This document shows, one piece after another, positions 1-50,530 of a stretch of 64,000 nucleotides of DNA (position 1 is its first letter; each line of letters starts with the position of its first letter). The translations under genes and the position numbers were made by a program. The notes beneath the pieces were generated by a model, which was given only the letters and a program-made list of their open reading frames with translations, searched no databases and had not been told where the DNA came from. Location of the stretch: positions 1-64,000 of the forward strand of contig CAWJQC010000006.1 of NCBI GenBank assembly GCA_963844965.1. Direction: 5' to 3'. Source of the stretch: an uncultured bacterium. Its GTDB lineage: Bacteria; Patescibacteriota; Minisyncoccia; UBA6257; 2-01-FULL-56-20.

Positions 1-172
1 CCAGTTTCTACCACATCAACCCGTTGCTGGCCTGACTCAATGTTTGAGATATGCGACTGAGGGCGGCCGATTTTTTTGGCCGCTTGCACTTGAGTGAGCC
101 CGGCTTCTACGGCGGGCCTTTCGGAGACGCTCCACCATATAGGCATATTCCCTCGTCTGGATCGATTTCATA
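1..172 (-). CDS. XRE-family HTH regulator, partial (runs off the window start); inverted copy of 3201-3419 with an indel
   Basis: Reverse complement of 1-230 matches 3190-3370. The mirrored start codon (cat) is at 170-172. Confidence 0.35.
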
Positions 173-372
173 CCTTTTCACGCTATATCCAAGAAAACTA
201 ATATCCAAATATTGGATATTGTGATATTTTTTGGAAGGGTTGGTCTGGCACAATTTGATGCTTCCCGTGGCGGTTTGTTTTTCTTGTCCTCTGGACTTCC
301 ACCACCGCTCAGTCATCAATACCGTCGGGTTATCCCGAAAGGTCGAAACAGAAGACAAATAAAAAAACATGA

Positions 373-1040
373 GTGCATTTTTTGTATTTTCTGTCATTTG
401 TAGCCCTAGGTGTTGAAATCCGCTGGACCGTGAAACCTGTTGATCCCTCAAGCAGCAGACCCGTGGGAAAGTGCTCCTTTGGTACGGTGGGGCATTCCTT
501 CTTCTCTGTTCTCATCGGCGTGTCTTATCTGTTGTCGCCTAGGGCACCCAGCGTCCGTGGCGAACACTACATCGAAGTTCTTGCTCGAAGAGGGAACAAG
601 CCCCGTCCTGCCGCAGCCGTCCCCAGTCGGAGCCCGGGGTCTCAAATTTTGCAGGTCTGACTGACTCCAGTTGAAGAGACCGAATCCAAAACCACAAGCC
701 CGCGTCTGCGCCGCAACGCAATGACTCACCCTGCTCCAGTCTTGAGGCTCCAACTCCAACTCCCGGCTCTTGTACCTACACCTGTGCAGCCGCAAACCGT
801 CTGATATCTGGGAGTACCCCAAACATAAATCCACGCAGACGTTTACCGTGGGGAGTAGCTGGCAGATGACCTGGAGCTATGACCGCTCGACCTTCGGTAT
901 TTTTCTCGGGGGAATTTCCAGGTGTACATTAACACCGCAAACATGTATTGCCCTCGTTCGACAATACCGGCGTGAACCAGCTCGGCGCGTCCTGGGATCG
1001 GAGACGGACTATTACCACACTGCTGGGAGCTATTATTGAG
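373..1040 (+). pseudogene. Degraded copy of a small secreted Pro-rich protein (mirror of 2322-3006)
   Basis: ORFs 373..660 and 770..1039 share the signal-peptide-like N-terminus (FLSFVALGV) and the C-terminal motifs QTFTVGSSWQMTWSYD / TDYYHT with the right-arm gene, but carry multiple indels. Confidence 0.35.
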
Positions 1041-1302
1041 CGGTGAAATTCAGAGGGGGAGCCTGGCACATTGCAAGGCTAAGGGTTAAGGGAGTCGCGG
1101 CACGATCCAATCCTCAATTGAACGGGATTTTATCTGTTTCTTGCTCCGACTAAAAGAGTTGTGCTTTTGCGGAATGCAATGTATTGGGCCTTACAATTTT
1201 GGTATGCTACCGTCTTAATCGCCGCGCATCTAATCTCTCTCTCTCTCGAACCGGCCGCGCCGGTTCGAGTCCCCTCGAATACCTACTAATCCTTAAGCCA
1301 GA

Positions 1303-1690
1303 AGGAAATTCGTCTTTCAGGTTTCTGAGCAAGCTCTCGTTGTATTACCGTGCGCTGAGCATTCCAGTGTACGAGGCGAATAGCTCTGTTCGGTTGGATT
1401 TGCGTCCAGGGCCCGATATTTCGCCTTGTGTTTGCGGTTCGCAAACAACGACCATGATCGGGAAAGTGAACCCATCCAAAGAAGTCGACGCCGGAAGCGA
1501 AGCTCTCAATAAAAATCTTGTCCGGATGAAGGAAAAGCTTGAGCCGTATATCGCCAAGAAATCCGTCAATGTGCGGCATCATGCTTTCCAGATAGTTTTT
1601 GTCACGGGAAAAGAATTGCAAAATCGTCGGCATATCGAAGATAGTATTGTACCTTCATCCCGCGTTTTATGAATTGGTCGAATTCATTCA
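1303..1690 (-). pseudogene. Reverse transcriptase, 3' portion only (motif C onward), left-arm copy
   Basis: YLRYADDF (YADD motif), LKLFLHPDKIFI, GVDFLGW thumb motifs; a frameshift sits ~1440. There are no RT domains 1-4 upstream; the gene is cut at the palindrome centre. Confidence 0.5.
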
Positions 1691-1695
1691 TATAA

Positions 1696-2122
1696 ATGTT
1701 CACTTCGCAACTTCTTGTGAACATTTATATGAATGAATTCGACCAATTCATAAAACGCGGGATGAAGGTACAATACTATCTTCGATATGCCGACGATTTT
1801 GCAATTCTTTCCCGTGACAAAAACTATCTGGAAAGCATGATGCCGCACATTGACGGATTTCTTGGCGACGGCTCAAGCTTGCCCTTCATCCGGACAAGGT
1901 TTTTATCAAGAGCTTCGCTTCCGGCGTCGACTTCCTTGGATGGGTTCACTTTCCCGATCATCGTGTTTTGCGAACCGCGAGCAAAAAGCGAATGTTTCGG
2001 GGCCTGGACGCAAATCCAACCGAACAGACTATTGCCTCGTACGCTGGAATGCTCACGCACGGTAATGCAACGCGACTTGCTCAGAACCTGAAAGACGAAT
2101 TTCCCTTCTGGTTTAAGGATTA
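1696..2122 (+). pseudogene. Reverse transcriptase, 3' portion only, right-arm copy (DGR-type C-terminal signature)
   Basis: QYYLRYADDFAIL ... (frameshift ~1870) ... LKLALHPDKVFIKSFASGVDFLGWVHFPDH ... IASYAGMLTHGNATRLAQNL, then a stop at 2120-2122. Confidence 0.5.
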
Positions 2123-2137
2123 GTAGGTATTCGAGGA

Positions 2138-2175
2138 CTCGAACCGGCGCGGCCGGTTCGAGAGAGAGAGAGAGT
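2138..2175. other. Perfect 11-bp GC hairpin (ctcgaaccggc/gccggttcgag) followed by (AG)7, immediately 3' of the RT stop; mirrored at ~1190-1272
   Basis: Seen directly in the sequence. Confidence 0.5.
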
Positions 2176-2321
2176 AGAATGCGCGGCGATTGAGAGACGG
2201 TAGCATACCAAAATTGTAAGGCCGATACATTGCATTCCGCAAACACAATACTTTTTGTCAAAGCAAGAACATGAGAAAATCCCCGTTCAATTGGGGATTT
2301 TATCGTGCCGCCGGAACTACA

Positions 2322-3006
2322 CTAACCCTTTACCGTAATGTGCCAGCTGCACTCTGAATTCACCTCGAGATAATAGCTGCCACCCGTGTGGTAATAGTCA
2401 GTATCCGATCCAGACGCGCCGAGCTGGTTCACGCCGGTATTGTCGAACGAGGGCGATCCGTTTGCGGTGTTAATGTACACCTGGAAATTCCCCCGATTCC
2501 CAAAGGTCGAGCAGTCATAGCTCCAGGTCATCTGCCAGCTATTCCCCACGGTAAACGTCTGCGTGGGTCTGCGTCCGCTACCAGAGATATCAAGAACGGT
2601 TTGCGGCTGCACAGGTGTAGGGGCGGGAGCGGGAGTTGGAGTTGGAGTGGACTGGAACAGGCTGCGGCGTTGGTTGCGGCGCAGGCGCGGGCTGTGGTTT
2701 CGGCATCGTCTTTACAACTGGAGTCAGAGAGTCCCGCGAAACCGGCTCAGGGCTCGGGGTTGAGGACGGCTGCGCGGCAGGGGCTTGTACTTCTTGCGCA
2801 GGAGCCGATGTCGTGTTCGCCACGGGCGCTGATGCCGTCGGCGACGACGGATCGACACGCCGATGATAAAGAGAAGAAGGAATGCCCCACCGTACCAAAG
2901 GAGCACTTTCCCACGGGTCTGCTGCTTGAAGGATCCACGGTTTCACGAGTCCCACGATTGCAACGCCTAGGGCTACAAATGACAGGAGTCCGAAAAATGC
3001 ACTCAT
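2322..3006 (-). CDS. Small secreted or anchored protein: signal/TM segment, Pro-rich linker (PKPQPAPAPQPTPQPVPV), ~95-aa C-terminal domain; candidate DGR target
   Basis: ORFs 2590..3120 (start at MSAFFGLLSFVALGV, 3006) and 2322..2612 are joined by a 1-nt frameshift. It lies convergent with the RT fragment. Confidence 0.45.
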
Positions 3007-3200
3007 GTTTTTTATTTGTCTTCTGTTTCGACCTTTCGGGATAGCTTTCTTTCCAACACCATTGATGACGCAGCGGTGGTGGAAGTCCAGAGGGCAAGAA
3101 ACCGCCACGGGAACCATCAAATTATGCCGGACCCACCCTTCCAGAATATCACAATATCCAATATTTGGATATTGGTTTCTTGGATATAGCGTGAAAAGGT

Positions 3201-3419
3201 ATGAAATCGATCCAGACGAGGGAATATGCCTATATGGTGGAGCGTCTCCGAAAGGCCCGCATAGAAGCCGGGCTCACTCAAGTGCAAGCGGCCAAAAAAA
3301 TCGGCCGCCCTCAGTCGCATATCTCAAACATTGAGTCAGGCCAGCAACGGGTTGATGTGGTAGAACTCAAGCGCTTCGCCGCATTGTACGGGAAGAGGCT
3401 GAACTATTTTATAAAGTAA
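3201..3419 (+). CDS. XRE-family HTH transcriptional regulator
   Basis: [25 protein letters not shown] is a classic Cro/C1-type HTH. Confidence 0.75.
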   Translation: MKSIQTREYAYMVERLRKARIEAGLTQVQAAKKIGRPQSHISNIESGQQRVDVVELKRFAALYGKRLNYFIK

Positions 3420-19102: not shown

Positions 19103-19120
19103 GTCCTCGGGTAGCGGAGG
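19103..19120. repeat. attL-like direct repeat of the tRNA-Ser 3' end (gcggagggggagggaatc)
   Basis: 17 of 18 nt match 26533-26550. Confidence 0.55.
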
Positions 19121-19277
19121 GGGAGGGAATCTCACACGAACACATGTTTTGCCCCGACCCCCTGACTTTTAAAACCCACGGTTTTTAATATTTTCCTACA
19201 CGGGGCAAAACGGTTCGAATCCCTCGGCTCATAGTTGCAAAAAGAAAACACCTCTTCGGGTGTTCCTTTTTGCAATT

Positions 19278-19365
19278 GCGGTGTCTGCTTGAAAATATCC
19301 GAACCGAACTGAATGGGCTTTTTAACGATAACGGACATAAATAGTTTTTAATCGGAACGGAAAGG
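19278..19365. repeat. IR arm T' (88 bp), perfect inverted copy of 20715-20802
   Basis: Direct comparison. Confidence 0.8.
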
Positions 19366-19397
19366 ACGATTTCAAGTTTTTCTTTGACGGCTTCATT

Positions 19398-20336
19398 TTA
19401 AATTTTTCTATTTTCCGTGTTAGAGCCTGTCGTCAGAAGGTCAGATTCCTTTTCAAATTCTTGCTGATTAATTAAACGCAATAAAAGATGGCGCACTGTG
19501 TAGTTCTTTATTTTGGCTGGATTATTTCCATCCTCAGTTTCAGTTACTACAAATTCATCAAGAGTTATTTTTCTTACCCAACCAGTTTCTAAGTCCATAT
19601 AAATATCTCCTTTGTATTCAGAACCACCCTCTGTTTTAATATATTTATCTTCAGAAGATTTGACAGCCATTTTCAGAGTGCTTTCGCCAGAATCATATCC
19701 AATTATCGCGCAGACAGCTCTATCAACTATGCTTGCTCCCTTAAATTCAAGCGTGACTTCCCCATTGCGAAAAACCGATCCTGGCTTAATAGTTGTGCCA
19801 AGATTAACAGGTGCCTCGCTAAAAGCCGCCGGATGCACAATCTTATCACCTATTAATTTCAATGCATCTATTCCTTTTCCAAAAAGCGGTCTTGAAAAGA
19901 TATCATTCAGAGCGTGAAAATCAATGAAATTATTGTATATTGCATAACAAAATTCAGGAGAAATTTTATTCCCCTTGCTGTCACTTATACCTTCAAATTT
20001 ATCATGCGGAATTCCGAATACAGGGCCTTTATCAAGTACGCCTGACATCCTATTAAATTCATAGTTCCATGATTTGAGTGCAGGAATAGTAACAATATTT
20101 TCAGAATTTAATTGTAAACAAAATTCTTTAATAGTACATTGATCTAATTTTTTCTCTGACAATGTTGCGGGAATGTAGCGGAGTTTTAATGAATATGTTT
20201 CGGTGCCTGTGCGTTTTCCGTCAAACCCCATGTGAATAAACTGGGTTCGCATATGATAATACTGGGTTTCCAGTTTTCGATTAATTGAAAAATCAAATTG
20301 GCATGCGAGATTTTGTAAAAGAGTTTTATTCCCCAT
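19398..20336 (-). CDS. Hypothetical protein (312 aa), the AT-rich cargo of unit A
   Basis: Intact ORF, no motif recognised. Confidence 0.6.
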   Translation of the reverse strand: MGNKTLLQNLACQFDFSINRKLETQYYHMRTQFIHMGFDGKRTGTETYSLKLRYIPATLSEKKLDQCTIKEFCLQLNSENIVTIPALKSWNYEFNRMSGVLDKGPVFGIPHDKFEGISDSKGNKISPEFCYAIYNNFIDFHALNDIFSRPLFGKGIDALKLIGDKIVHPAAFSEAPVNLGTTIKPGSVFRNGEVTLEFKGASIVDRAVCAIIGYDSGESTLKMAVKSSEDKYIKTEGGSEYKGDIYMDLETGWVRKITLDEFVVTETEDGNNPAKIKNYTVRHLLLRLINQQEFEKESDLLTTGSNTENRKI

Positions 20337-20340
20337 ATCT

Positions 20341-20556
20341 TTATTTCATTAAATTATCAATCGTAATGCCAAGTCCGTTGGCAATTTTTACGACAGTCTG
20401 AATAGACGGCTTAGTAATAACATTACTTTCGATTTTAGTAAGCGTTGTGTAGGGAAGGTTGGATTTTCTTGCCAGTTCGTCTTGCGTTAGTTCTTGCTTA
20501 TTCCTAAGCTGTTTTATTTTATCTCCAATCGTTTCCTTGTTGTTTTGACTTTTCAT
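20341..20556 (-). CDS. XRE-family HTH regulator
   Basis: LTQDELARKSNLPYTTLTKIE. Confidence 0.75.
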   Translation of the reverse strand: MKSQNNKETIGDKIKQLRNKQELTQDELARKSNLPYTTLTKIESNVITKPSIQTVVKIANGLGITIDNLMK

Positions 20557-20714
20557 AGTTTCCTAAGTATGATAGTATTAGTATGGGTGCTTATTTGACC
20601 CTTCATAATTATACTAACAAATTTTATGAGATTAGTCCACTCAAAAAATAAAAATCCGCTTTTAGCCTGTATAAAGTACGAGCCGACATTTTTGACGGGT
20701 TCTTTGGCAGTTTG

Positions 20715-20802
20715 CCTTTCCGTTCCGATTAAAAACTATTTATGTCCGTTATCGTTAAAAAGCCCATTCAGTTCGGTTCGGATATTTTCAAGCAGACACC
20801 GC
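20715..20802. repeat. IR arm T
   Basis: Inverted copy of 19278-19365; ends with the core caccgc. Confidence 0.8.
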
Positions 20803-20880
20803 CAGTTAAGAAATGGCTCGCCTTGCAGTCGGGCTCGCCAGCCGTTTTGTGGGGAAATTTCAAGCCGTTTCGCATTAAGA
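20797..20880. repeat. IR arm P (84 bp), perfect inverted copy of 22265-22348 (the 3' end of recombinase 1)
   Basis: Direct comparison. It lies 26 bp upstream of the recombinase 1 start codon. Confidence 0.85.
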
Positions 20881-20906
20881 AAGGCTAAAAGCAGATTTTC
20901 TAAAAT

Positions 20907-22349
20907 ATGAGATATTTTATCTACACAAGGAAATCAACCGAGAGCGAGGACAGACAGATGATGTCGCTGGAATCGCAGCTGAACGAGCTGAAAGAATTTG
21001 CCGTCAAAGAAAAACTTGAAATCGTCGCTTCGCTGAGCGAAGCGCAAACCGCCAAAGAACCAGGGCGAAAGATTTTTGCAGAAATGCTTGATCGGATTTG
21101 CGCAGGAGAGGCCGACGGAGTTTTGGCTTGGCATCCCGACCGATTGGCCCGCAATTCGATAGACGGCGGAAAGATTATATATCTCTTGGACACAGGAAAA
21201 ATCAAAGACCTCAAATTTCCGACGTTCTGGTTCGACAGCACGCCGCAGGGGAAATTTATGCTGAACATGGCCTTTGGACAGAGCAAATACTATGTGGACA
21301 ATTTGAGCGAGAATATTAAACGAGGACATCGAGCAAAACTAAGAAAAGGAATTTGGCCCGGCTTCGCCCCGCTTGGATATCTGAATAATCCAAAAACAAG
21401 GGCTATTGATGTTGATAGCGAAAGAGCACCGATTATTAGGAAAGCGTTTGAACTTTACTCAATCGGCGAATATACCCTGAAAGCCCTTGCCAAAGTTTTG
21501 GAACAAGCGGGACTAAGAAGCCATAAAGGCAATATTCTTGTCGTTGCCTGTGTCCAGCGACTTTTGAAGAATCCGATTTACTACGGCGTATTCTCTTTCA
21601 ACGGTGAAGTATATGACGGAACGCACGAGCCTATTATTTCCAAGAAACTTTTTGATTCTGTTCAACAAGTGATGAGCAATCGAGGAAAGAAGCAACGAAA
21701 ACGAAAACACGACTTTGCTTTTTCAGGATTTATGCGTTGCGGAAAGTGCGACTGCCTTATCACCGCCGAAACGCAGAAGGGACACACCTATTATCGTTGC
21801 ACCAAGAAAAAGCAAACTTGCAATGAAAAGTATTTGCGCGAGGAAGTTCTTGTTGAACAGATGAAATCCGTCATTCAAAAAGTTTCAATTCCCGACGACT
21901 GGGCGGACAATATGCTTGCCGAGATAGACCGAGAGAAAGAAAGCATACAAAACGAGGGCTTTGTTTTTGTCCAAAATCTCAAAACGCAGAAAGTGGAAGT
22001 TGAGCAGAAAATAGATCGCTTGCTCGATATCTACATTGAGGGTAAGGGCATATCGCCCGAAGAATATCAGGACAAGAAAGCGAAATTGCTCAACGAGAAG
22101 GGCGACATCGAGCAAAGAATTAGAGATTTTGGGCAAAAGGGAAATAACCGGCTCGAACTTATCCGAGAAGTGATTTTACAGAGTAGCCAAGCCAAAATTG
22201 TTTTATCGCAGGGCGATAAAAAGCAAATCCGCGAATTTCTCAAAAATGTCGGCTCGAACTTTACTCTTAATGCGAAACGGCTTGAAATTTCCCCACAAAA
22301 CGGCTGGCGAGCCCGACTGCAAGGCGAGCCATTTCTTAACTGGCGGTGA
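20907..22349 (+). CDS. Large serine recombinase 1 (resolvase catalytic domain + recombinase domain + Zn ribbon + coiled coil)
   Basis: YTRKST...R (catalytic Ser region), AWHPDRLARN, CGKCDCLITAETQKGHTYYRC. Confidence 0.85.
   Translation: MRYFIYTRKSTESEDRQMMSLESQLNELKEFAVKEKLEIVASLSEAQTAKEPGRKIFAEMLDRICAGEADGVLAWHPDRLARNSIDGGKIIYLLDTGKIKDLKFPTFWFDSTPQGKFMLNMAFGQSKYYVDNLSENIKRGHRAKLRKGIWPGFAPLGYLNNPKTRAIDVDSERAPIIRKAFELYSIGEYTLKALAKVLEQAGLRSHKGNILVVACVQRLLKNPIYYGVFSFNGEVYDGTHEPIISKKLFDSVQQVMSNRGKKQRKRKHDFAFSGFMRCGKCDCLITAETQKGHTYYRCTKKKQTCNEKYLREEVLVEQMKSVIQKVSIPDDWADNMLAEIDREKESIQNEGFVFVQNLKTQKVEVEQKIDRLLDIYIEGKGISPEEYQDKKAKLLNEKGDIEQRIRDFGQKGNNRLELIREVILQSSQAKIVLSQGDKKQIREFLKNVGSNFTLNAKRLEISPQNGWRARLQGEPFLNWR
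22265..22348. repeat. IR arm P' (inside the recombinase 1 3' end; its stop codon overlaps the core)
   Basis: Inverted copy of 20797-20880. Confidence 0.85.
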
Positions 22350-22572
22350 GATATTAGACTTTGCTCGAACCCACTTCGCACGCGCGGAGCGCGTGGTGGC
22401 TTGAACCGGAAGCGTACGCCCCGATTCCGCTGACAGCGCCTCGACCGCGCTCGCGGACTCGCGCGGGCAAACCCAAAAATTTCCTTGCATTTTCTTTGCG
22501 CGGCTCCTCCCCCCACCCCTCCGCCGCAAGGCGGGAAATGAAGGAAAGGAAATTTTTGGTTTGCGTCGCCAC
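22349..22572. repeat. IR arm Q' (~224 bp), inverted copy of 24631-24860; contains a ~96-nt hairpin with a G-rich loop
   Basis: Direct comparison. The table ORFs inside it (22354..22707, 24595..24849) mirror each other and are probably non-coding. Confidence 0.8.
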
Positions 22573-22781
22573 AAGGAAACTCCACAAAGAGTAACAAAAG
22601 ATTTCATCAAATGAAACCCTTTGCTCCGTATCCTTGTGGCGACCCGAGGCGCAATACAATGCGGTTTGCGCTAGGGCACAATCATATTTGATATGTGCTT
22701 GCCCCACCCGCCCAGTGCGCGCACAACCAGCCCGGCCGTTTTTAGGAGAAATTATAAAACGGCGGGGCTGGCTCCCTTGAA

Positions 22782-23387
22782 TTACTTAAAGCAAGTGAAC
22801 TGAGGCAAGACCACAGATAACGCAACAAATGCCAGTCCTAATATAAAGGTAGCCGTTATGAGATTTGCATTTGAGAAAAGATTCTCACCCAATTCTTTCA
22901 AAATTGTATTTTCGTAGGCATCCGCTTCCTCCATGTCGGGGTTATTCCTCATGTCATGATATTTTTTCTCAAATTCTTCCAATTTCGGCTTGTATTCCTC
23001 TGGGGCAATTTCACCCGTCGAGAATTGTGTGCTGACATAGGAAAAGTCGCCAAGAGTTTTCTGAATGCCCTTCAAGCCCGCCGTATATTTTGCGCCAAAA
23101 ATCAGATTGCGTTTGAAACCAAGGAATGCAACAACAACCGCGATGACAAAAAATATAAATCCTACGCTGGCAAGCATGTCATTTTTTGGAAAGTTGCTTG
23201 CCAACAGCGCTTGAGTTAAACCTGCGAAAATGCCGCAGACCGTGACTATATACTCGTAGTATTTTCTGTGGCTACTCTTAAACCCATCAATTTGCGGGCT
23301 TGTAGTCAGAATAAAACTGTGAATTTTCTCCTTATAGGATTGCGCTTTTTGCTTCAATTTACTTACTTCTTCATCAGTCATAGACAT
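22782..23387 (-). CDS. Membrane protein, hypothetical (cargo of unit B)
   Basis: Four predicted TM segments. Confidence 0.55.
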   Translation of the reverse strand: MSMTDEEVSKLKQKAQSYKEKIHSFILTTSPQIDGFKSSHRKYYEYIVTVCGIFAGLTQALLASNFPKNDMLASVGFIFFVIAVVVAFLGFKRNLIFGAKYTAGLKGIQKTLGDFSYVSTQFSTGEIAPEEYKPKLEEFEKKYHDMRNNPDMEEADAYENTILKELGENLFSNANLITATFILGLAFVALSVVLPQFTCFK

Positions 23388-23389
23388 TT

Positions 23390-24367
23390 TTATTTCAAAA
23401 GATTGTTGATGTTTTGAATAATACCGGCGCTTTCAACCTGCCCGGTCACTACCCAGGTCGGTATGCCAAGAAAACAAACCTTTCCGTTTTCTTTTGCCAA
23501 CGCGAGGCCGCCAGAATTTCCGTGGTCGACTTTCGCAGACACTAAGTAATCACTGATTCCGTAGCTGGCATCATAACCGCTGATAATTCCCGTGGTAACA
23601 CTTTCAGGCGGCGCAAACTGTTCCAGATTTACCGAAGAGGCAGGATAGCCAACTATTGCAACTGATGTGCCAACGGTGGCTTTTTGCGAGCATCTGGTCA
23701 TTGTTCCAACCCTGTAATCCAACTGGTTAACCTCTAAATATTCATCGAGCGGCGCACCATTTTGGTGCGCGATGGTCCGTGCCTTCTCATTTCTACTAAA
23801 AGGGACGATCGCGAAGTCGCGTTCGGCGTTAGGTTTATAGGCATTTGCTAAATCCAAAATATAAGCACCCGAACGATACGACATTCCATTGACTTCGTAC
23901 TTCGGATTCATAAATTTATCGTTCACAAACAAACATGTATCCATTCCACTGACCACATGCCAATTCGTAAGCAGTTGTCCCGTTTTATAAAGTATGGCGG
24001 TGCCGACATACTCATTGTTATCAGTGTCAAAACAGGTAACTACTCCGACTGTATCAAGATAGGGTTGGATGTCGGAGGAAGATAGGTCTTGAGAAATATT
24101 TGCATTAGTTGCTTTCTGGTTGCTCGCTTGATTAGATTTAACTTGTTTCTTCAAATCTTCCACCTCTTGCTTTAGTTGGTCGATTTCCGAAGCAGGCGGT
24201 GTTGTCGTCCCAGAATTAGCGCTATTCGCCGGAGTTTGCGAAGTATTTTCTACCGGATGATTTTTAATCTGTTTCCATCCAAAATATCCCGCGCCGCCCA
24301 AAACCAAAATTCCCGCAATAATTGCGATGAGGAGCGGTATTTGAATAAATCCCTTTGAGTTTTTCAT
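23390..24367 (-). CDS. Trypsin-like (S1) serine protease with an N-terminal TM anchor
   Basis: Catalytic triad context TNWHVV (His), DFAIV (Asp), GNSGG (Ser). Confidence 0.7.
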   Translation of the reverse strand: MKNSKGFIQIPLLIAIIAGILVLGGAGYFGWKQIKNHPVENTSQTPANSANSGTTTPPASEIDQLKQEVEDLKKQVKSNQASNQKATNANISQDLSSSDIQPYLDTVGVVTCFDTDNNEYVGTAILYKTGQLLTNWHVVSGMDTCLFVNDKFMNPKYEVNGMSYRSGAYILDLANAYKPNAERDFAIVPFSRNEKARTIAHQNGAPLDEYLEVNQLDYRVGTMTRCSQKATVGTSVAIVGYPASSVNLEQFAPPESVTTGIISGYDASYGISDYLVSAKVDHGNSGGLALAKENGKVCFLGIPTWVVTGQVESAGIIQNINNLLK

Positions 24368-24371
24368 AAAT

Positions 24372-24575
24372 CTATTTTAGCAGTTTATCAACCGAAACCC
24401 CAAGCGCTTGAGCCAACCTTTCCAACTGTTGAATGGTGATATTTTTCTTCCCGTTTTCGATTGCACTCATATATCCTCTGTCCATATCAAGCGCTCGACA
24501 AATATCGCCTTGTGTCATTTTCTTTTGCGTCCTGATTTTCTTAATGTTTCCGCCAAGGCGTTTACTTATCAACAT
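24372..24575 (-). CDS. XRE-family HTH regulator
   Basis: MTQGDICRALDMDRGYMSAIENG. Confidence 0.7.
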   Translation of the reverse strand: MLISKRLGGNIKKIRTQKKMTQGDICRALDMDRGYMSAIENGKKNITIQQLERLAQALGVSVDKLLK

Positions 24576-24630
24576 TAGTATAGCATAGGAGATATTGCAC
24601 TTTCAAACAATCTTGAACTATAATTCAATA

Positions 24631-24860
24631 GTGGCGACGCAAACCAAAAATTTCCTTTCCTTCATTTCCCGCCTTGCGGCGGAGGGGTGGGGGGAGGAGC
24701 CGCGCAAAGAAAATGCAAGGAAATTTTTGGGTTTGCCCGCGCGAGTCCGCGAGCGCGGTCGAGGCGCTGTCAGCGGAATCGGGGCGTACGCTTCCGGTTC
24801 AAGCCACCACGCGCTCCGCGCGTGCGAAGTGGGTTCGAGCAAAGTCTAATATCTCACCGC
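24631..24860. repeat. IR arm Q
   Basis: Inverted copy of 22349-22572; hairpin 24640-24735 with the loop GGAGGGGTGGGGGGAGG. Confidence 0.8.
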
Positions 24861-24986
24861 AGATAGAAACTTCGCGTTCGGACAGAGCCGCGCCGCTGTG
24901 CGGCGCGGCAGAGTGGGCGGGCAAGAAATGCCGCCGCGAAGCGGCGAATTGGCTCGGCGGGGGGAATCCGAAATGCGGGGATTTGG
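24857..24986. repeat. IR arm S (~130 bp), perfect inverted copy of 26408-26535
   Basis: Direct comparison. It lies 26 bp upstream of the recombinase 2 start. Confidence 0.85.
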
Positions 24987-25011
24987 CTCTTGTTTCAAAT
25001 CCAAGAACTAT

Positions 25012-26420
25012 ATGAATATCAAACCAAAATATTTTCTATACGCGCGTAAGAGCACCGAGGACGATGACAGGCAAATCATGTCCATCGAGGCACAGCTTTT
25101 TGAGTTGCGGGAGATCGCGCGTAAAGAAAATCTTGAAATTCTTGAGGAATTTCAAGAGTCGAAAAGCGCAAAGACACCGGGGCGCGAAATATTTGGCGAG
25201 ATGATGCGCCGCGTAGAAGAAAGCGATGGTGTTGGTATTTTGGCGTGGCATCCCGATCGATTGGCGAGAAATAGTATTGATGGCGGGCGCATCATCTACT
25301 CTGTTGATACGCGCAAGATCGTTTCTTTGCGCTTTCCGACATTTTGGTTTGAACCAACCCCGCAGGGGCTCTTTATGTTGCAAGTGGCGTTCGGGCAATC
25401 TAAATATTATTCGGACAATTTGAGCGAAAATATCAAGCGCGGCATCCGCCAAAAATTGCGTCGGGGCGAGTGGCTCAATCGTGCGCCCTTTGGCTATCAA
25501 AATAACCCGCGAATTCGCAATATCGAGCCGCATCCAGACAAACGCGCGTATTGTGAAATTGGCGTACGAGGAATACGCCAAAGGGTCGCATACGCTGATT
25601 TCGTTGTCGCAATTTTTGGCGGACTTGAATGTGGTTACTTCTCACGGAACGCCACTTGCCAAAGTTTCCATCAAACGACTGCTGACACATCGGGTATATA
25701 TTGGCTTCGTCAAACATGGTGCTGAATGGTTTGATGGAAACTTTGAGCCGATTCTAACTCCCGCATTGTTTGAAGCCGTGCAGAGGGTTGTGGCGGGCAA
25801 GGAGCGGCCGCGCACGCGCAAGGTGAAGCATGATTTTCCACTTGTCGGCCTCTTTCGCTGTGGCGAGTGCGGCGGCATGATTTCCGCGCAGTGGGCAGTC
25901 AATCGTTGGGGTACAAAATATCGCTACTATCGCTGTTCTAAAAAGCACGGCCGTTGCTCGCAACCGTATGTGCACGAAGGCCGAGCTTGCCGACAAGATA
26001 CGGCACGGCTTCAAACAATCTCGCTTTGCGATCGCTATACCGATTGGATGTTGACGAAAGTGAAAGAGTGGGAGCGCGAGGAAGTTGGAGCGTCGCAAAG
26101 CGAGGTTCAAAATCTTTCCGCAAGTATCAAAGCGGACGAGGAGCGCATGGAAAAGCTAGTTTCCGCGTATCTCGATGGCGATGTACCGAAAGCAAATTTA
26201 TCTTGACCAAAAAAGATACGCTCATGCGCTCTCTCGCCGCTTTGCGGGAAAAATTGAAAGATTTTGAACGCGGGAGAAAGAATTGGGTCGAACCCCTGCG
26301 GGAATGGATTTTGGATTTGAAACAAGCCGATTTTTTGTCCCGTTCGAATGATTTGTACCAAATCAAGCAGTTTGTACAAAAAATCGGAACGAACCCTATG
26401 GTTCGTGCCAAATCCCCGCA
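25012..26420 (+). CDS. Large serine recombinase 2 (paralog of 20907-22349), two frameshifts (~25530, ~26190)
   Basis: YARKSTEDDDRQIMSIEAQ, AWHPDRLARNSIDGGRIIY, CGECGGMISAQ...YYRCSKK. The C-terminus IKQFVQKIGTNPMVRAKSPHFGF is homologous to the recombinase 1 C-terminus and lies in arm S'. Confidence 0.7.
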
Positions 26421-26535
26421 TTTCGGATTCCCCCCGCCGAGCCAATTCGCCGCTTCGCGGCGGCATTTCTTGCCCGCCCACTCTGCCGCGCCGCACAGCG
26501 GCGCGGCTCTGTCCGAACGCGAAGTTTCTATCTGC
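26408..26535. repeat. IR arm S' (abuts the tRNA-Ser 3' end)
   Basis: Inverted copy of 24857-24986. Confidence 0.85.
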
Positions 26536-26619
26536 GGAGGGGGAGGGATTCGAACCCTCGATACCTTGCGGCATACACGCTTTCCAAGCGTGCGCACTAG
26601 GCCACTATGCGACCCCTCC
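26535..26619 (-). tRNA. tRNA-Ser (anticodon GGA), type II with a long variable arm
   Basis: Manual fold: acceptor GGAGGGG/CCCCTCC, anticodon stem CACGC/GCGTG with loop TTGGAAA, T-arm GAGGGTTCGAATCCCTC. Confidence 0.8.
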
Positions 26620-26791
26620 TTATCAACCAAAATCTTACAACTTAAATTTTAAATTTTCCAATTTTTAATTTTCAAACCGACACCGCCTGTAATGCCTTAA
26701 TCCTTTCTTTAATCCCTGCCTGCCGGCAGGCAGGGATGCGCCTCTACGTCGCACTAGTGCGCCGAGGAGGCGTAATGCGACCCCTCCGAAA

Positions 26792-36200: not shown

Positions 36201-38153
36201 ATCCGCATAGACATTTGTGGTGGTTGTGGAAACCTGAACCCGGTCGCCGGCATTGAACTTTGAACTGTTGTTGATGTTAACGGTTACTGTCGGCGACGCG
36301 TAAGAATTTCCGGCGGAGTCATAGGCCTTTACGACAATGTCTTCTTTGCCATTAGCGAAGTTGAGCGTACTGATGGAGAACGAATAGGGCGGCGAATAAC
36401 CAACGAAATACACGCTTCCGCCCCAATAAAGCTCGACTCTGCTTATAGAGCCGCCGCCGGAAACTGTGGCTGTAATCGTTATGTCTCCCGAAACGGTCGC
36501 ACCATTAGTCGGCGAGGTGATATTTACGGTCGGTCCTCCGGTTACGGCGTTTGCCAAATAATTTTCTACGCTCCAGCCGGATGGACCGGAATCATAATTC
36601 ACATCCCACCACCAGTAGTTATCATAAAAATAGGAAATGCCGGTAATAGTTCCCTGCGCGCCGCTTGGCTGCGTACCCAATATGGTGCTCGATACCATCG
36701 GCAGAGTATGTATGTTCAAGTTGGCGGTGGTCTTGACGCGGTTACCGGCGGCGAATTTACTTGAAGAGGCGTTGAGCTCGCTCGCGGCAATTTTTATCAA
36801 GTAACCCTCGACGCTCCATCCCGAAACAGCGTCATCGTACGTCACTTGCCACCAATTATACGAGTTGGCATTAATGGGACCGCCGCTTACTATCCCCTGC
36901 GCTCCCGCGCTCTCCGTACCGACAATAGCGGCGGAAAGCGACTGACCAGCCCTGACGTTCAAATTCACCGTCGCTTGCACCTTATCGCCTATGGAAAATT
37001 TATCGGAAATAACAGCCTTGGCTAAACCCGACTCGTAGCACCACCCCGTAACCGCATCATTGAAAGTCACCTTCCACCAAATATAGCCATCGGCGGGCGT
37101 GGGACCACCGCTTATAGTGCCGCGCGCTCCCGCCTTTTCCGTCCCCACAGCCACGCCCACGGTCGTGGGAGTTGACAGAACACTCAAGTCCGAGTTTGTT
37201 TGCACAATGTCGCCCATTGAAAATTTATTGCTCGTGGTCGGCGCGATACTCACAAGATACTCCTCTATACTCCAGCCGCTTGTCGCATTATCGTCATACT
37301 TCACGTGCCACCAGACAAAACTGTCGGAACTCGTCGGGCCGCCGATAATACTGCCGAGAGAATTCGGCGCCTCTACCCAACCAATGGTGGATGAAAGCGA
37401 GGGGTCGGAACGAACATTCAGATTAGTTGTCGTCCGCACGCGGTCGCCCATTGAAAACGCCACGTAGGTACTCGTAGCCGTGACGGATTCCGTAATTTTC
37501 ACCAAATAATCCTCAACGCTCCACCCCGAGATGCCGTCATCATATATCACTTGCCACCAGGCATAGCCATCAGCGGCAACAGGGCCGCCCATAATGTGGC
37601 CGAGCGTCCCCGAAGCCTCAGACGTCACAATCGTGCCGGAAAGCGAAGGCGTTGAGCGCACATTCAAACTCTCCGTTGTTTGCACGCGATCGTTCTTTGA
37701 AAATTTCACGGAAACCGCCATTGTCGTCGCACTGACGGGCTCGGACCAAGCCGAGACATTTCCCGCGGAATCATAAGCGGCAATCACGTACGTGTACGTG
37801 GTGGCGGGCAGAAGACCTGTGTCAGCATACGTCGTTCCGACTATGCCACTTATGGGAGGAGGCGTACTGTCTCTCAGAATCGCGTAACCAGCCACTCCAA
37901 TATTGTCGGTTGCTGCATCCCAGCTGAGGTCAATTTCTGTGGTCGAAGCTTCCACTACCTTGAAATTAGTGGGGGTGGACGGCGGCGTAACATCTCTTGT
38001 GCTTGTGGCTTGCGCGTGCGCCGTGGCAAGAGAACAAAAAAGTGGGAATATGAAAAACAAAACAAAAACTCCGCACGTAAATAGCCGGAGGTTCTTTGCG
38101 CACCGCTTGTACGTCTTTAGAATAACCGCCGAGATAAAGAGAGTACTTGGCAT
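33300..38153 (-). CDS. Giant secreted/surface protein (1617 aa): signal peptide, FN3 and Ig-like domains, ~10 bacterial SH3-like repeats, CBM-like module
   Basis: Repeats of the form KFS.GDRV.TT.NLNVRS.PSLS..I........G.I.GGP......WW.V.YDD...GW..E.YL. Confidence 0.8.
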   Translation of the reverse strand: MPSTLFISAVILKTYKRCAKNLRLFTCGVFVLFFIFPLFCSLATAHAQATSTRDVTPPSTPTNFKVVEASTTEIDLSWDAATDNIGVAGYAILRDSTPPPISGIVGTTYADTGLLPATTYTYVIAAYDSAGNVSAWSEPVSATTMAVSVKFSKNDRVQTTESLNVRSTPSLSGTIVTSEASGTLGHIMGGPVAADGYAWWQVIYDDGISGWSVEDYLVKITESVTATSTYVAFSMGDRVRTTTNLNVRSDPSLSSTIGWVEAPNSLGSIIGGPTSSDSFVWWHVKYDDNATSGWSIEEYLVSIAPTTSNKFSMGDIVQTNSDLSVLSTPTTVGVAVGTEKAGARGTISGGPTPADGYIWWKVTFNDAVTGWCYESGLAKAVISDKFSIGDKVQATVNLNVRAGQSLSAAIVGTESAGAQGIVSGGPINANSYNWWQVTYDDAVSGWSVEGYLIKIAASELNASSSKFAAGNRVKTTANLNIHTLPMVSSTILGTQPSGAQGTITGISYFYDNYWWWDVNYDSGPSGWSVENYLANAVTGGPTVNITSPTNGATVSGDITITATVSGGGSISRVELYWGGSVYFVGYSPPYSFSISTLNFANGKEDIVVKAYDSAGNSYASPTVTVNINNSSKFNAGDRVQVSTTTTNVYADITPSSTISSGPSVFGQLLGTHSSGTLGFISTSSPVYVNGQGWWFIKYDSDPSGWSPEDSLKKYVPPPDTTPPVVSIVSPTSSEIISGTFNVLVNATDNVGVARVYLYVDGTYKGADTQLPYSFVWDTSSTLNATHTLVAVAYDGAGNGTSSLPVVVTTNNPDTTPPVARISYPLNGQTVSGVARVSVSATDNVAVADINLLADGAAIGPAVTSSPVKSLFYTFLWDTNLATNNASHTLNAIAHDASNNLGTSPPVIVGVKNPPPSTKFSIGDRVMAMSSVNVRSLPSTFAPSLAVEPEGSVGTVIGGSEYSDTYFWWEVSFDSGAEGWVAENYLERISENLLIDPGFELGGSAWSDSAFPGRSVTTSDFHGGTHSEEIDVLSTGLQMVSQDVTNIIPGASYTASGWIKASGVGGSGARIYLLWSSSSTPYYPLLSSMSSIYPQGNLVRVDYVGGILGSGGWTNFSNHFTAPWTAKSVRFLLVTDEDTDGVGSAWFDDLGFYNYGPLPTADTTPPTVVINSPKNNSFIPGGTASVYVTATDNTAVSEVDIYIDGNLVASPTVPPYSYSWNTSGTAEGIHTVKAVATDIFNNSSSTTNTFGIDRTPPTTPTGLVAQVVSLTRINLTWSPSSDNIAVAGYKIMRNGSVIATVSSTPSYADNSVSGSACYTYAVSAFDAAGNNSSASTPVSIVTTAPPPSTKFTIGQRVILTSSATNIAVTSAPSTCAAGTPVGTQTYTVDTVPPTVTLTSPADGSTVNSNTLQFTASAWDMGGAQGTVVGGPVYSNASWWWNVNFDSGPSGWVQEDYMKNGGVTKVGFYIKGILISFASSSPYAANFNVSGFPSGGPYPFYAKAYDTAGNVGTSPTNNVSISPPPLDTIPPTITVTSPADNSTLSGVVTVSANASDNVGVTKVEFYVDAMLKDSKTLPPYSFSWDTTKEDNSPHVIYLMAYDAAGNFQASDYLTVTVQN

Positions 38154-48796: not shown

Positions 48797-50530
48797 ATGA
48801 AACAGGCGGGGCAACTATTAATATTTTCCATTTTACTACTTTTGGCGGTAGGAAGTTTCGCGCGCGCGCAATCCGCGGACACCATCCCCCCGTCGGTTCC
48901 GACCGGCGTTACCGCGACCGTTCTTCCCGGCTTGCAAGTTCAGGTTTCCTGGACCGCATCAACTGACAATGTCGGCGTCGCCGGGTATTACGTTTACCGG
49001 AACGGCATGCTCATCGGCAGTACCTCAGATCTGACGTTCACCGATAAGGTGCCGTTTCAGGGATTATATTCCTACACCGTTTCCGCTTATGACGCGGCCG
49101 GGAATCTGTCGCCAAACCAATCACTTCCTTCCAGCATCGTAACAGTTGCGAGCGATACGACGCCTCCTTCCGTTCCCGCCAGCCTCGCGGTAACAACGAT
49201 AACCAGTTCATCCATCACCATTTCCTGGGCCGCGTCAACGGATAATGTCGGCGTCGCCGGATATTACGTTTACCGGAACGGCAGCCGGCTCGTCATCTCC
49301 ACATCAAGCGCCCTCACAGCGACAACCTATACCGACTCCGGACTCACTTGGGGCACCACCTACATCTATACCGTCGCCGCTTACGACGCATCGGGAAATA
49401 TTTCCAGTCAGTCAAGTCCGGTCACCGCGACCACAATATCCGACATCTATCCCCCCTCAACCCCGTTCCTTCTCTCAGCCACCACAAAATCGTCCGGCGA
49501 AATTGATATCACCTGGAGTCCTTCAACCGACAATGTCGGTGTGGCGGGATACTATATATACCGAGGCGGAAGTCAGATTGCGGCCGTTTCATCCACCCCA
49601 CTCGCCTACAAAGATACAGGCCTTTCCGCCGGAACCGATTATTCCTATTATATTGCCGCCTACGACGCAGCGGGAAATATTTCTCTGGACAGCAATTCGC
49701 TGGACACGACGACATTTCCTCCGGACACTATACCGCCATCAATGCCGGACGGCTTCACGGCCAAGGCCGTTTCCGCGTCGCAAATTCAGTTGAGCTGGAT
49801 GCCAGCATCGGACAACGTCGGCGTCGCCGGATATCATCTTTATAGAAGCGGCGGCCAACTCCCCAATTCCACCACCACTTTCAGCAGCAACAGCCAAATT
49901 TTAGACACCACATCCACTTCCTACATGGATACCGGCCTCGCTTCCGATACAATATACGTCTACGCGGTAGAGGCCTACGATGCAGCAGGAAATCTTTCGC
50001 CGCAATCCACCGTCACCGCGACGACACTTTCGTCTGGAACGATTGCCCCCACGACTACGTCGCCCGCTGTTACGAGCAATCCCACCGCCGTGAATCCACC
50101 AGCGACAACGGCTCCGACCGTCACGGCCACGGCACCCGCAAATAATGCCGCCGTTTTTACAACAACTTTATATATTGGACTGCGCAGCGATGAAGTGAAA
50201 ACTTTGCAGTCATTTTTAATACAGGAAGGTTATCTCGCGGCGGGAAATGACACGGGATTTTTCGGACAACTGACCCAGAGCGCGGTTCAGAAATTCCAGT
50301 GCGACCAGAACATTGTTTGCTCCGGCGATCCGCAGAGCACCGGCTGGGGATTGGTCGGCGCAAAAACGAGAAGCGCACTGAACGCGCTCTATTCCGCTCC
50401 CACTTCCGCGCAAGCGCCCGCCGCGAGCGGCGGCGCTCCATCAGTGGCACAGCTGCAGGCGCAAATTCAATCGCTTGAAGCGCTATTGCAATCGCTTGAA
50501 GCACAACTCAACAACCAAAACGCGAAATAG
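48797..50530 (+). CDS. Secreted protein with ~5 FN3 domains and a C-terminal peptidoglycan-binding domain
   Basis: Repeated W..S.DNVGVAGY.(V/I)YR motifs; C-terminal LQSFLIQEGYL...GFFGQLTQSAVQKFQ. Confidence 0.75.
   Translation: MKQAGQLLIFSILLLLAVGSFARAQSADTIPPSVPTGVTATVLPGLQVQVSWTASTDNVGVAGYYVYRNGMLIGSTSDLTFTDKVPFQGLYSYTVSAYDAAGNLSPNQSLPSSIVTVASDTTPPSVPASLAVTTITSSSITISWAASTDNVGVAGYYVYRNGSRLVISTSSALTATTYTDSGLTWGTTYIYTVAAYDASGNISSQSSPVTATTISDIYPPSTPFLLSATTKSSGEIDITWSPSTDNVGVAGYYIYRGGSQIAAVSSTPLAYKDTGLSAGTDYSYYIAAYDAAGNISLDSNSLDTTTFPPDTIPPSMPDGFTAKAVSASQIQLSWMPASDNVGVAGYHLYRSGGQLPNSTTTFSSNSQILDTTSTSYMDTGLASDTIYVYAVEAYDAAGNLSPQSTVTATTLSSGTIAPTTTSPAVTSNPTAVNPPATTAPTVTATAPANNAAVFTTTLYIGLRSDEVKTLQSFLIQEGYLAAGNDTGFFGQLTQSAVQKFQCDQNIVCSGDPQSTGWGLVGAKTRSALNALYSAPTSAQAPAASGGAPSVAQLQAQIQSLEALLQSLEAQLNNQNAK

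Follow-up and report, generated by a model that had tools for sequence, protein, structure and literature searches.

How does a recombinase gene come to end inside a long inverted repeat, the other arm of which stands just before its own start codon? This question is raised by a stretch of 64,000 nucleotides (nt) of contig CAWJQC010000006.1, assembled from an uncultured bacterium of the Patescibacteriota; we call this single contig stretch the window, and all coordinates are positions in it. It carries rec1, the gene of a large serine recombinase of 480 amino acids (aa). The original prediction stated that the last ~27 codons of rec1 lie in a repeat arm, here called P', and that an inverted copy of this arm, P, is found 26 nt before the ATG. 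We confirmed both points: P and P' are 84 nt long and 100% complementary, P stops 26 nt short of the rec1 ATG, and the rec1 TGA occupies 22347-22349. Such a pair is not due to chance, since it is an 84-nt inverted repeat without a mismatch. The original description went no further than P/P' and S/S'; the pair is real and belongs to a chain of four inverted repeats (A/A', P/P', Q/Q' and S/S'), each adjoining the next, which ends at a tRNA-Ser gene. We show that the region 19284-26537 consists of two tandem small integrative islands at the 3' end of this tRNA gene, and it is solidly established that the element is a serine-integrase island which targets tRNA 3' ends and carries an extra, inverted attP site.

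Judged from its sequence, rec1 is a member of the large serine recombinases (serine integrases), of which it has the catalytic, recombinase and zinc-ribbon domains (Pfam Resolvase, Recombinase and Zn_ribbon_recom). Its catalytic domain matches PF00239 (E=2e-20, residues 4-149), its C-terminal part matches PF07508 (Recombinase) and PF13408 (zinc ribbon), and a distant match is found with the C-terminal domain of the A118 integrase (structures 4kis and 6dnw). The residues R8-K9-S10 are invariant across 21 recombinase homologues. In NCBIfam, the recombinase gave only sub-threshold matches, to XisF and Ccr, and the match to IS607 reached 31.8 bits for a cut-off of 110. An exact-protein look-up of rec1 returned no record.

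Two tandem islands at the 3' end of a tRNA-Ser gene

Island 1 extends from 19284 to 22348. Its features, together with the flank on its left, are the following:

19233-19283, no strand: X, putative native flank beyond tRNA-Ser before insertion, forming attL of island 1 (terminator hairpin and core)
19284-19365, + strand: arm A, right half of the island 1 attP, 100% complementary to A'
19365-19391, + strand: block rc(c), antisense copy of rec1 codons about 32-40 (27 nt, 100% against 21000-21026)
19398-20556, - strand: cargo cassette 1, whole, divergent from rec1
19398-20336, - strand: cassette 1 protein of 312 aa, function without assignment (open reading frame, ORF)
20341-20556, - strand: cassette 1 XRE/C-protein-like helix-turn-helix (HTH) regulator of 71 aa (Pfam HTH_3; PADLOC 'Control_protein' and HTH matches)
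20651-20720, + strand: contiguous patchwork of rc(U), rc(N') and rc(d), antisense matches to the 5' untranslated region (UTR) and to coding segments of rec1
20715-20796, + strand: arm A', inverted copy of A (repeat search)
20797-20880, + strand: arm P, inverted copy of the rec1 3' end (repeat search)
20907-22349, + strand: rec1
21000-21026, 21026-21044, 21039-21061 and 22240-22263, + strand: blocks c, h (a hairpin), d and N' inside rec1
22265-22348, + strand: arm P', left and non-specific half of the island 1 attP, rec1 codons 453-480 (the last 27; repeat search)

Arm A contains a mimic of the tRNA T-loop, ATCCGAAC, at 19297-19304, 16 nt off the core (attP-type spacing), and arm A' holds the mimic GTTCGGAT at 20776-20783, reading toward the core. 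At its outer end P' carries AACTGGCGG, in which a tRNA 3' end (CCGCCA) is read in antisense. X presents terminator-like hairpins on both strands at 19245-19266 and the core GCGGTG at 19278-19283, and appears to be the sequence expected after tRNA-Ser in the empty site. A promoter-like site is predicted at 20545-20573, so that the internal copy would fall in the rec leader.

Island 2 extends from 22343 to 26537 and is followed by the tRNA gene:

22343-22572, + strand: arm Q, which supplies the right att half of island 2 and matches the complement of Q' at 100% over 230 nt
22782-24575, - strand: cargo cassette 2, encoding a 201-aa putative membrane protein, a 325-aa trypsin-like protease and a 67-aa C-protein-like HTH regulator
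24631-24860: arm Q' (230 nt, repeat search)
24857-24987: arm S (131 nt, 100% complementary to S')
24631-24987, + strand: Q'+S, inverted copy of the joined S'·Q (357 nt exact, with a 4-nt GCGG overlap)
25012-26537, + strand: rec2, serine recombinase gene homologous to rec1, with two frameshifts
26407-26537: arm S', the rec2 3' end (131 nt)
26534-26619, - strand: tRNA-Ser(GGA), the integration target (ARAGORN, Rfam)

A'+P (20715-20880) is the reverse complement of the joined P'·A over 166 nt with 0 mismatches, and since both A'+P and Q'+S are the exact inverse of the outer joined ends of their own island, the region is made of two tandem islands. Each of them shows the same layout, i.e., attL (flank·A), the minus-strand cargo, the internal inverted A'·P, the rec gene, and attR (P'·tRNA or P'·next island). 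It follows from this layout that P' is the recombinase-side half of attP and that P is the same half in the internal copy. On its outer side, P' meets the 3' end of a tRNA gene or, as in the window, a further island, and P meets A'. At the end of the chain, the tRNA-Ser 3' end shares 4 nt with S', and its T-loop, ATTCGAAC at 26548-26555, begins 11 nt from the junction (attB-type spacing). Arm Q carries GCTCGAAC at 22363-22370, with attP-type spacing. Rfam detected two tRNAs in the window and nothing else.

The prediction that rec2 repeats the pattern was also correct, as the S/S' pair is perfect over its 131 nt; rec2 itself is broken by its two frameshifts, at about 25527-25544 and about 26180. 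The coding ends of the two genes had been called homologous. This stands for their position, S' starting at the codon homologous to the P' start, after a (I/V)G(S/T)N motif (IGTNPMV vs VGSNFT), but not for their sequence, as no alignment is possible between P' and S'. The frameshifts of rec2 coexist with perfect repeat pairs of 131 and 230 nt, which may mean that the death of the gene is very recent, that the indels are sequencing errors, or that the arms are homogenised independently of the island's own enzyme.

Related sequences also lie outside the islands. Left of island 1 lie an antisense fragment of the tRNA-Ser 3' end (GCGGAGGGGGAGGGAA, 19116-19131) and a sense piece of the T-arm (GGTTCGAATCCCTC, 19212-19225), with a small hairpin between them; both resemble scars left by past integration or excision events. 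At the other end of the chain, just past the 5' side of tRNA-Ser, the sequence ATTTTCAAACCGACACCGCCTGT at 26668-26690 is 87% identical to the A'/P junction (20784-20806) and is devoid of a preceding T-loop mimic.

Attachment sites and conservation of the islands

Relatives of rec1 were counted at E<=1e-20 (n=7154), and 160 homologous loci were fetched from genome and metagenome collections, each being searched for repeats and tRNAs. The mirrored arm was tested in the 95 loci with enough flank, and arm statistics were calculated on all 124 repeat-bearing loci, among them the complete genome L056 and two long contigs, L015 and L036 (0.77 and 1.8 Mb). All loci were judged from assembled sequence. 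Among the matches listed and fetched, identity with rec1 goes from 85% down to about 50%. The relatives come mostly from metagenome-assembled genomes of Patescibacteria, and also from Brocadia, Nitrospira, Ignavibacteriota, Omnitrophota and others; many of their ORFs continue into a tRNA T-arm, which they read in antisense as '...NWRRGRDSNPR'. Among annotated phage and plasmid proteins no relative exceeds 31% identity, and only 2 relatives were found among 2.9 million viral contigs. A literature search retrieved no description of this recombinase-island family, which is apparently both widespread and undescribed.

The presence of a mirrored upstream copy in homologues was a test set beforehand, and its result is essentially positive. 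Indeed, 84 of the 95 testable loci (88%) possess an inverted repeat of this kind, with a right arm that spans the 3' end of the recombinase gene and a left arm placed 4-265 nt 5' of the start codon. The arms measure 32-167 nt (median 99) and have a median identity of 99.3%, with 59 perfect pairs out of 124. The mirrored arm persists even where recombinase identity falls to about 50% (32-64% for rec2), and its inner boundary is conserved; the internal copy is always located between the divergent HTH gene and rec. A tRNA adjoins the right arm, i.e., the 3' side of the recombinase gene, in 78 loci, and the left arm in 0. These tRNAs belong to 12 isotypes (Ser 38, Gln 18, Asn 7, Ala 5 and eight others).

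In loci with sufficient sequence on the left, the cargo is bracketed by another repeat pair, which adjoins P with an overlap of 3-11 nt. In 19 loci, the outermost X|A junction is composed of a native terminator flank and a core of 3-9 nt identical to the P' end. As X is native flank, cargo and recombinase were inserted together, as a single unit. Moreover, ARAGORN and Rfam recognise an intact tRNA at the junction, the native flank being displaced to the far end in the same number of loci, so that the elements can be classed, by these features, as tRNA-integrating genomic islands. Arrays are not restricted to the window, since at least 5 further loci display attP-type spacing beyond P'.

As regards the attachment sites, P' repeats at its outer end, in antisense, the terminal bases of the tRNA that is targeted (TGGCGG for Ser, TGGCTG for Gln, TGGCTCC for Asn and TGGTGG for Val/Leu), and the tRNA 3' end sits 6-8 nt within the right arm. 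Beyond the left arm, nearly all loci carry GTTCGAAT or GTTCGGAT, a copy of the tRNA T-loop. On the element side, the start of this motif has its mode at 16 from the arm boundary (14-16 in 88 of 113 loci) and, on the tRNA side, at 11 (9-11 in 72 of 77 loci), which gives an offset of 5 per locus. This agrees with the offset published for serine integrases, where the zinc-ribbon-domain (ZD) motif occupies positions 16-24 of the attP half-site and is shifted 5 bp centre-ward in attB (PMC3783163). Here, the shift is found on one half-site only. The motif is borne by A (in attP and attL), by A' (in the internal copy) and by the tRNA (in attB and attR), and it is absent from the other halves, which consist of arbitrary flank or of the 3' end of the recombinase gene itself.

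From this anatomy and the published serine-integrase rules, a half-site logic can be proposed. The recombinase would read the tRNA T-arm as an attB-type half-site. It would take the mimic in A, which lies 5 bp farther out with respect to the crossover, for a half-site of the attP type, and strand exchange would occur within the 3-9 bp common to P' and the tRNA 3' end. By exchanging strands inside this common segment, integration would rebuild the tRNA and, because each site has only one specific half, attR would retain an intact target half, allowing further islands to stack into arrays. In the same way, attL × attR could look like attP × attB to the enzyme, and the reaction may be reversible without a directionality factor (RDF). 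In serine integrases generally, strands are exchanged conservatively at a central dinucleotide, attP × attB is directional and excision requires an RDF; the islands show identity blocks of 3-9 nt at the place of the crossover, and no recognised RDF.

The family also presents exceptions. Two loci (L136 and L141) have intact recombinase genes and no internal copy, and the arms of several islands with intact genes are just 86-94% identical; hence, the internal copy is not strictly essential. In L113, the upstream and 3' arms come from different lineages and are mismatched, and the tRNA appears interrupted. In L120, the left arm is located further 5', 610 nt before the recombinase start. Four fossils (L004, L013, L100 and L089) have their cargo oriented as the recombinase and have lost the internal copy together with the first ~17-28 codons, their recombinase gene beginning at codon ~18-29. 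A deletion between c blocks that were then direct repeats would give this arrangement.

As for the cargo, the cassettes of L081-L083, of L013 and of the window always associate a C-protein-like HTH gene with a variable effector, which can be an N6/N4 methyltransferase, an HNH nuclease, a trypsin-like protease or a protein with no assigned function. This suggests an exchangeable defence or addiction cargo with fixed boundaries at rc(c) and rc(U). L081 (4.26 kb) and L082 (2.7 kb) were considered as circular forms and rejected, being ordinary integrated copies. Cargo-only islands, in which an A half-site would come straight after a tRNA, were found 0 times among the 108 tRNAs of the fetched loci, a small sample.

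Arm identity and antisense copies of the recombinase gene

The arms co-diverge with their genes, as originally predicted. Between island 1 and its closest relative, L083, the recombinases are 85% identical and the backbone, gene included, shows 82% nucleotide identity; the P' arms are 76% identical and, within each island, both arms are identical at 100%. The cargo cassettes of these two islands are unrelated, that of L083 carrying an HNH gene. Arms which differ between relatives and yet remain identical within an island imply concerted evolution.

The nature of this process was approached through the arm mismatches (n=99 over 60 loci), which comprise 26 G·U-type changes, 21 A·C-type changes and 52 transversions. 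They reveal no sign, on either strand, of the wobble bias expected from selection on RNA pairing, and they are about two-fold rarer at 40 nt or less from the core. The arms of island 2 are perfect despite the frameshifted rec2; in the comparison of arm decay with recombinase decay, nearly all sampled genes are intact. Taken together, the lack of G·U bias, the perfect arms beside a broken rec2 and the arms of 86-94% identity at some loci argue for a copying at the DNA level, which is frequent and not obligatory. We weakly infer that gene conversion or template switching, and not RNA pairing or inversion, would keep the arms identical.

The mirror image is not limited to the arms. Left of A', in the window's lineage (at least 13 loci), antisense copies of the 5'UTR segment U, of N' and of d follow each other contiguously and in the same order; N' corresponds to codons 445-452 in rec1 (FLKNVGSNF) and about 445-454 in the lineage (FLKNIGSNF), and d to codons 45-51 in rec1 and 46-53 in the lineage. 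Right of A is found an antisense copy of recombinase codons ~32-40 (c). In the window, 20672-20695 pairs with 22240-22263 (96%), 20698-20720 with 21039-21061 (87%), and 20651-20675 with 20875-20899 (84%). Among clade-1 loci, the antisense blocks co-vary with their own recombinase gene, at variable positions. Within the coding sequence, a small hairpin lies between c and d, and its stem shows co-variation at synonymous positions. This 7-bp hairpin, at 21026-21044 in the window, is represented elsewhere at the homologous codons 41-46 (GCTTCGC/GCGAAGC, GCCTCGC/GCGAGGC, GCTTCCT/AGGAAGC), and the long A/A' arms of the cargo unit occupy the place homologous to this in-gene hairpin, h.

In clade 2, the 5'UTR between P and the ATG is a row of perfect antisense copies, 12-22 nt long, of conserved coding segments. 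Their partners, at codons about 443-448, 428-433, 119-124, 113-118 and 103-107, are collinear and nested inside P:P'. We counted 159 perfect UTR:coding matches in 109 loci, where shuffled UTRs led us to expect 1.3. Watson-Crick pairing stops sharply at the edges of the patches, and neither their mismatches nor their flanks showed a wobble signature when composition was controlled. The recombinase gene thus has an interrupted mirror image, of which P/P' is the largest block.

The window contains other repeats as well. Positions 1-3365 form an imperfect 3.3-kb palindrome centred near 1710, with blocks that are 80-100% (mostly 93-100%) complementary; long ORFs are absent from it, and it may represent either a genuine inverted repeat of large size or an artefact of fold-back assembly. 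The tandem or periodic repeats at 48945-49853, 36546-37559 and 61691-62150, which are diverged and have periods of about 280, 240 and 163 nt, are probably repeat domains of large surface proteins, unrelated to the islands.

Role of the internal copy and relation to known systems

What is the internal copy for? We propose, with low confidence, that it could be a resident attP-like site used for docking or autoregulation of the recombinase and not cut and joined. Its place would be the control region from which the regulator and rec diverge, a position analogous to that of res between tnpA and tnpR. The explanation as a whole (tandem tRNA islands, half-site logic, and internal copy as docking or control site) is the one that we favour, tentatively, as plausible while falling a little short of probable. 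Several observations weigh against it. A docking site needs about 50 bp, and the perfect identity spans 166-450 bp. The operator idea leaves unexplained the short co-varying antisense coding copies that accompany the internal copy. In addition, the internal site and attR constitute an inverted attP-type × attB-type pair, which should invert the rec cassette, and no isomer was seen. Finally, L136 and L141 do without the copy, and the arms of 86-94% identity belong to intact-looking elements.

According to the main rival explanation, the arms and antisense blocks would pair within one strand, be it single-stranded DNA (ssDNA) or a very long transcript, the modules being looped out as hairpins. 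The tRNA end would then return beside the original flank, or a double-stranded site would be presented on a single-stranded molecule. Such a fold accounts for the strict Watson-Crick pairing with co-variation in the arms and in blocks of 12-28 nt, and for the excess of UTR:coding matches nested in P:P' in clade 2 (159, for 1.3 expected); its stems tile the islands with linkers of zero nt, all clade-1 pairings seem to fit one fold made of two stems, two three-way junctions and a rcN'-rcd bridge, and the fixed orientation is no longer a problem. We nevertheless consider it unlikely, if worth keeping in view. On neither strand is there the G·U signature that RNA would leave, and selection on pairing is unable to keep stems of 100-300 bp at 100%. 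Serine recombinases cut four strands of duplex, and a folded attP would leave hairpin-capped chromosome ends. Furthermore, the islands encode no replication or transfer genes, and no ssDNA stage is known. A more specific proposal, in which the island works as a folded single strand with two side-by-side stems leaving the att junction and with caps formed by three-way junctions bridged together, appears improbable. Its pairings would comprise A:A', P:P', the contiguous rcU-rcN'-rcd patch, rc(c) and, in other lineages, the nested UTR patches, and the island would be looped out in its entirety. If it were true, the folded strand could serve ssDNA uptake by naturally competent Patescibacteria or a route like that of the CTX phage or of integrons, and the passage through a folded single strand would explain the strict Watson-Crick homogenisation of the arms. 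We rejected a planar RNA fold of the clade-1 blocks, of which the pairing chords all cross, and a circular-form fold with a single long L:L' stem is impossible, as the contiguous rcN' and rcd would sit at its opposite ends.

The internal copy could also be part of a self-inversion switch, in which Rec would recombine the internal attP-type site with attR and flip the rec cassette, the flipped rec being read from the strong tRNA promoter and the observed state being silent and absorbing. The types and orientation of the sites allow such an inversion, with products identical to the substrates (rules in PMC3783163), rec is convergent with the tRNA in 78/78 loci, and the cargo is flipped in the fossils L004, L013 and L100. 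However, the flipped state was found in 0/78 loci, no contig has a tRNA 5' of rec, about 25 bp per half-site would suffice, making long perfect arms superfluous, and the antisense blocks are unaccounted for; we judge this switch improbable. Nor do the loci resemble an invertible segment of the Hin/Gin type, a tRNA lying next to the rec 5' arm in 0/78 assembled loci, or a shufflon, each repeat pair having its own sequence and all loci a single arrangement. The copy could also be a functionless relic, left by an ancestral inverted duplication of rec/att and homogenised by host gene conversion. The upstream region of clade 2, a collinear and heavily deleted mirror image of rec, would suit this origin, as would the decayed arms at some loci with an intact rec and the two loci devoid of the copy. 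Against neutrality stand the retention of the copy in 88% of testable loci, the conservation of its inner boundary, and patches of 12-22 nt which co-vary though too short for homologous conversion; we find such a relic improbable. The analogy with protelomerases and hairpin telomeres, made in the original prediction, fails. P and P' are never juxtaposed in ~165 loci, and the enzyme is a serine recombinase. The core of Val-tRNA lineages, GTGGA, contains no palindromic dinucleotide, so that a serine recombinase could invert a repeat-flanked unit and could not excise it or join P to P'. In formal terms, the chain could be described by four insertion events, each at the centre of a palindrome, which would make the arms halves of palindromic sites, circle-joined or hairpin-resolved, in self-contained units of telomere or insertion-sequence (IS) type. 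Such units are very improbable: P'·P, A'·A, a rec unit without A' and a tRNA directly before A are all lacking from the examined loci, products of GTGGA-type cores are not ligatable by a serine recombinase, and cargo and rec, X being native flank, came in together. Independent repeat-flanked IS-like units with palindromic att circles were rejected on the same grounds (X native, A' always beside the rec unit, some cores non-palindromic), and the loci differ from insertion sequences, IS607 included, in that the rec unit lies between A' and a tRNA or island in the large majority of those with sufficient flank. As for an assembly artefact (a fold-back chimera or a mis-resolved repeat), perfect inverted repeats can mislead assemblers and many contigs break at the arms; yet the architecture recurs in more than 120 independent assemblies with conserved arm boundaries, and the complete genome L056, the contigs of 0.77 and 1.8 Mb, and the imperfect arms (80-99%) of other loci exclude it.

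The islands thus interpreted can be compared with known systems. They share with phage large serine integrases (A118/LI, phiC31, Bxb1 and SPbeta SprA) the same domain set, a short identical core and the 5-bp attP/attB offset. Unlike these, their enzyme is less than 31% identical to annotated ones and nearly absent from viral contigs, they target the extreme 3' end of many tRNAs, their motif is on one half-site, with the gene 3' end as the other half, and they carry a second, inverted attP internally. Like tRNA genomic islands, satellites and tycheposons, they insert at tRNA 3' ends with restoration of the tRNA, bear small cargo or defence cassettes and form tandem arrays; those elements, however, mostly use tyrosine integrases and a long duplicated tRNA segment, whereas here we find a serine recombinase, an identity of 3-9 bp and an internal inverted att copy. 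A site in a divergent promoter, with possible autoregulation, is also known from Tn3/gamma-delta res (tnpA-tnpR) and from IS ends overlying the transposase promoter, but those regulatory sites are short and themselves recombined, while the islands possess an extra inverted copy of 166-450 bp, identical to the ends.

A recombinase gene between or beside inverted copies of its own sites is likewise found in Hin/Gin/Pin segments and with the FLP repeats of the yeast 2-micron plasmid, and an excised island circle would, as in 2-micron, hold two inverted sites separating two unique regions; in contrast with these systems, the islands display 0/78 inversion isomers and have neither an enhancer/Fis system nor a replication origin. 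With protelomerase telRL sites (TelN, TelK, ResT), they have in common only long perfect inverted repeats and a DNA-breaking enzyme; they are without palindromic junction or tyrosine-recombinase-like resolvase, and their arms adjoin a tRNA and an att half-site. In IS10/Tn10, outside transcripts are inhibited by fold-back, the sequence 5' of the transposase gene complementing its own mRNA; in the islands, by contrast, the pairing partners are coding segments and the gene 3' end, and no RNA wobble signature is seen. Small defence-type cassettes within long inverted repeats were described in 2010, their mechanism not being established (PMC2853133), and the islands differ from those units by their ties to a serine recombinase, a tRNA target and an att-copy logic. 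The internal mirrored attP and the co-varying antisense patches are without counterpart among known serine-integrase elements, and their explanation could reveal a new way for mobile islands to control or propagate themselves.

Serine integrases are among the main tools for the insertion of large DNA, and the island clade, with more than 7000 relatives, is abundant and very compact. It appears to read the universal tRNA T-arm together with a few 3'-terminal bases, at least 12 tRNA isotypes being targeted, and the isotype-retargeted lineages constitute a natural series for studying and reprogramming site choice. Their one-sided half-sites suggest an RDF-independent reversibility and explain the building of arrays. 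These islands look like a common carrier of small defence or addiction cassettes in the genome-reduced Patescibacteria, whose mobile elements are poorly known.

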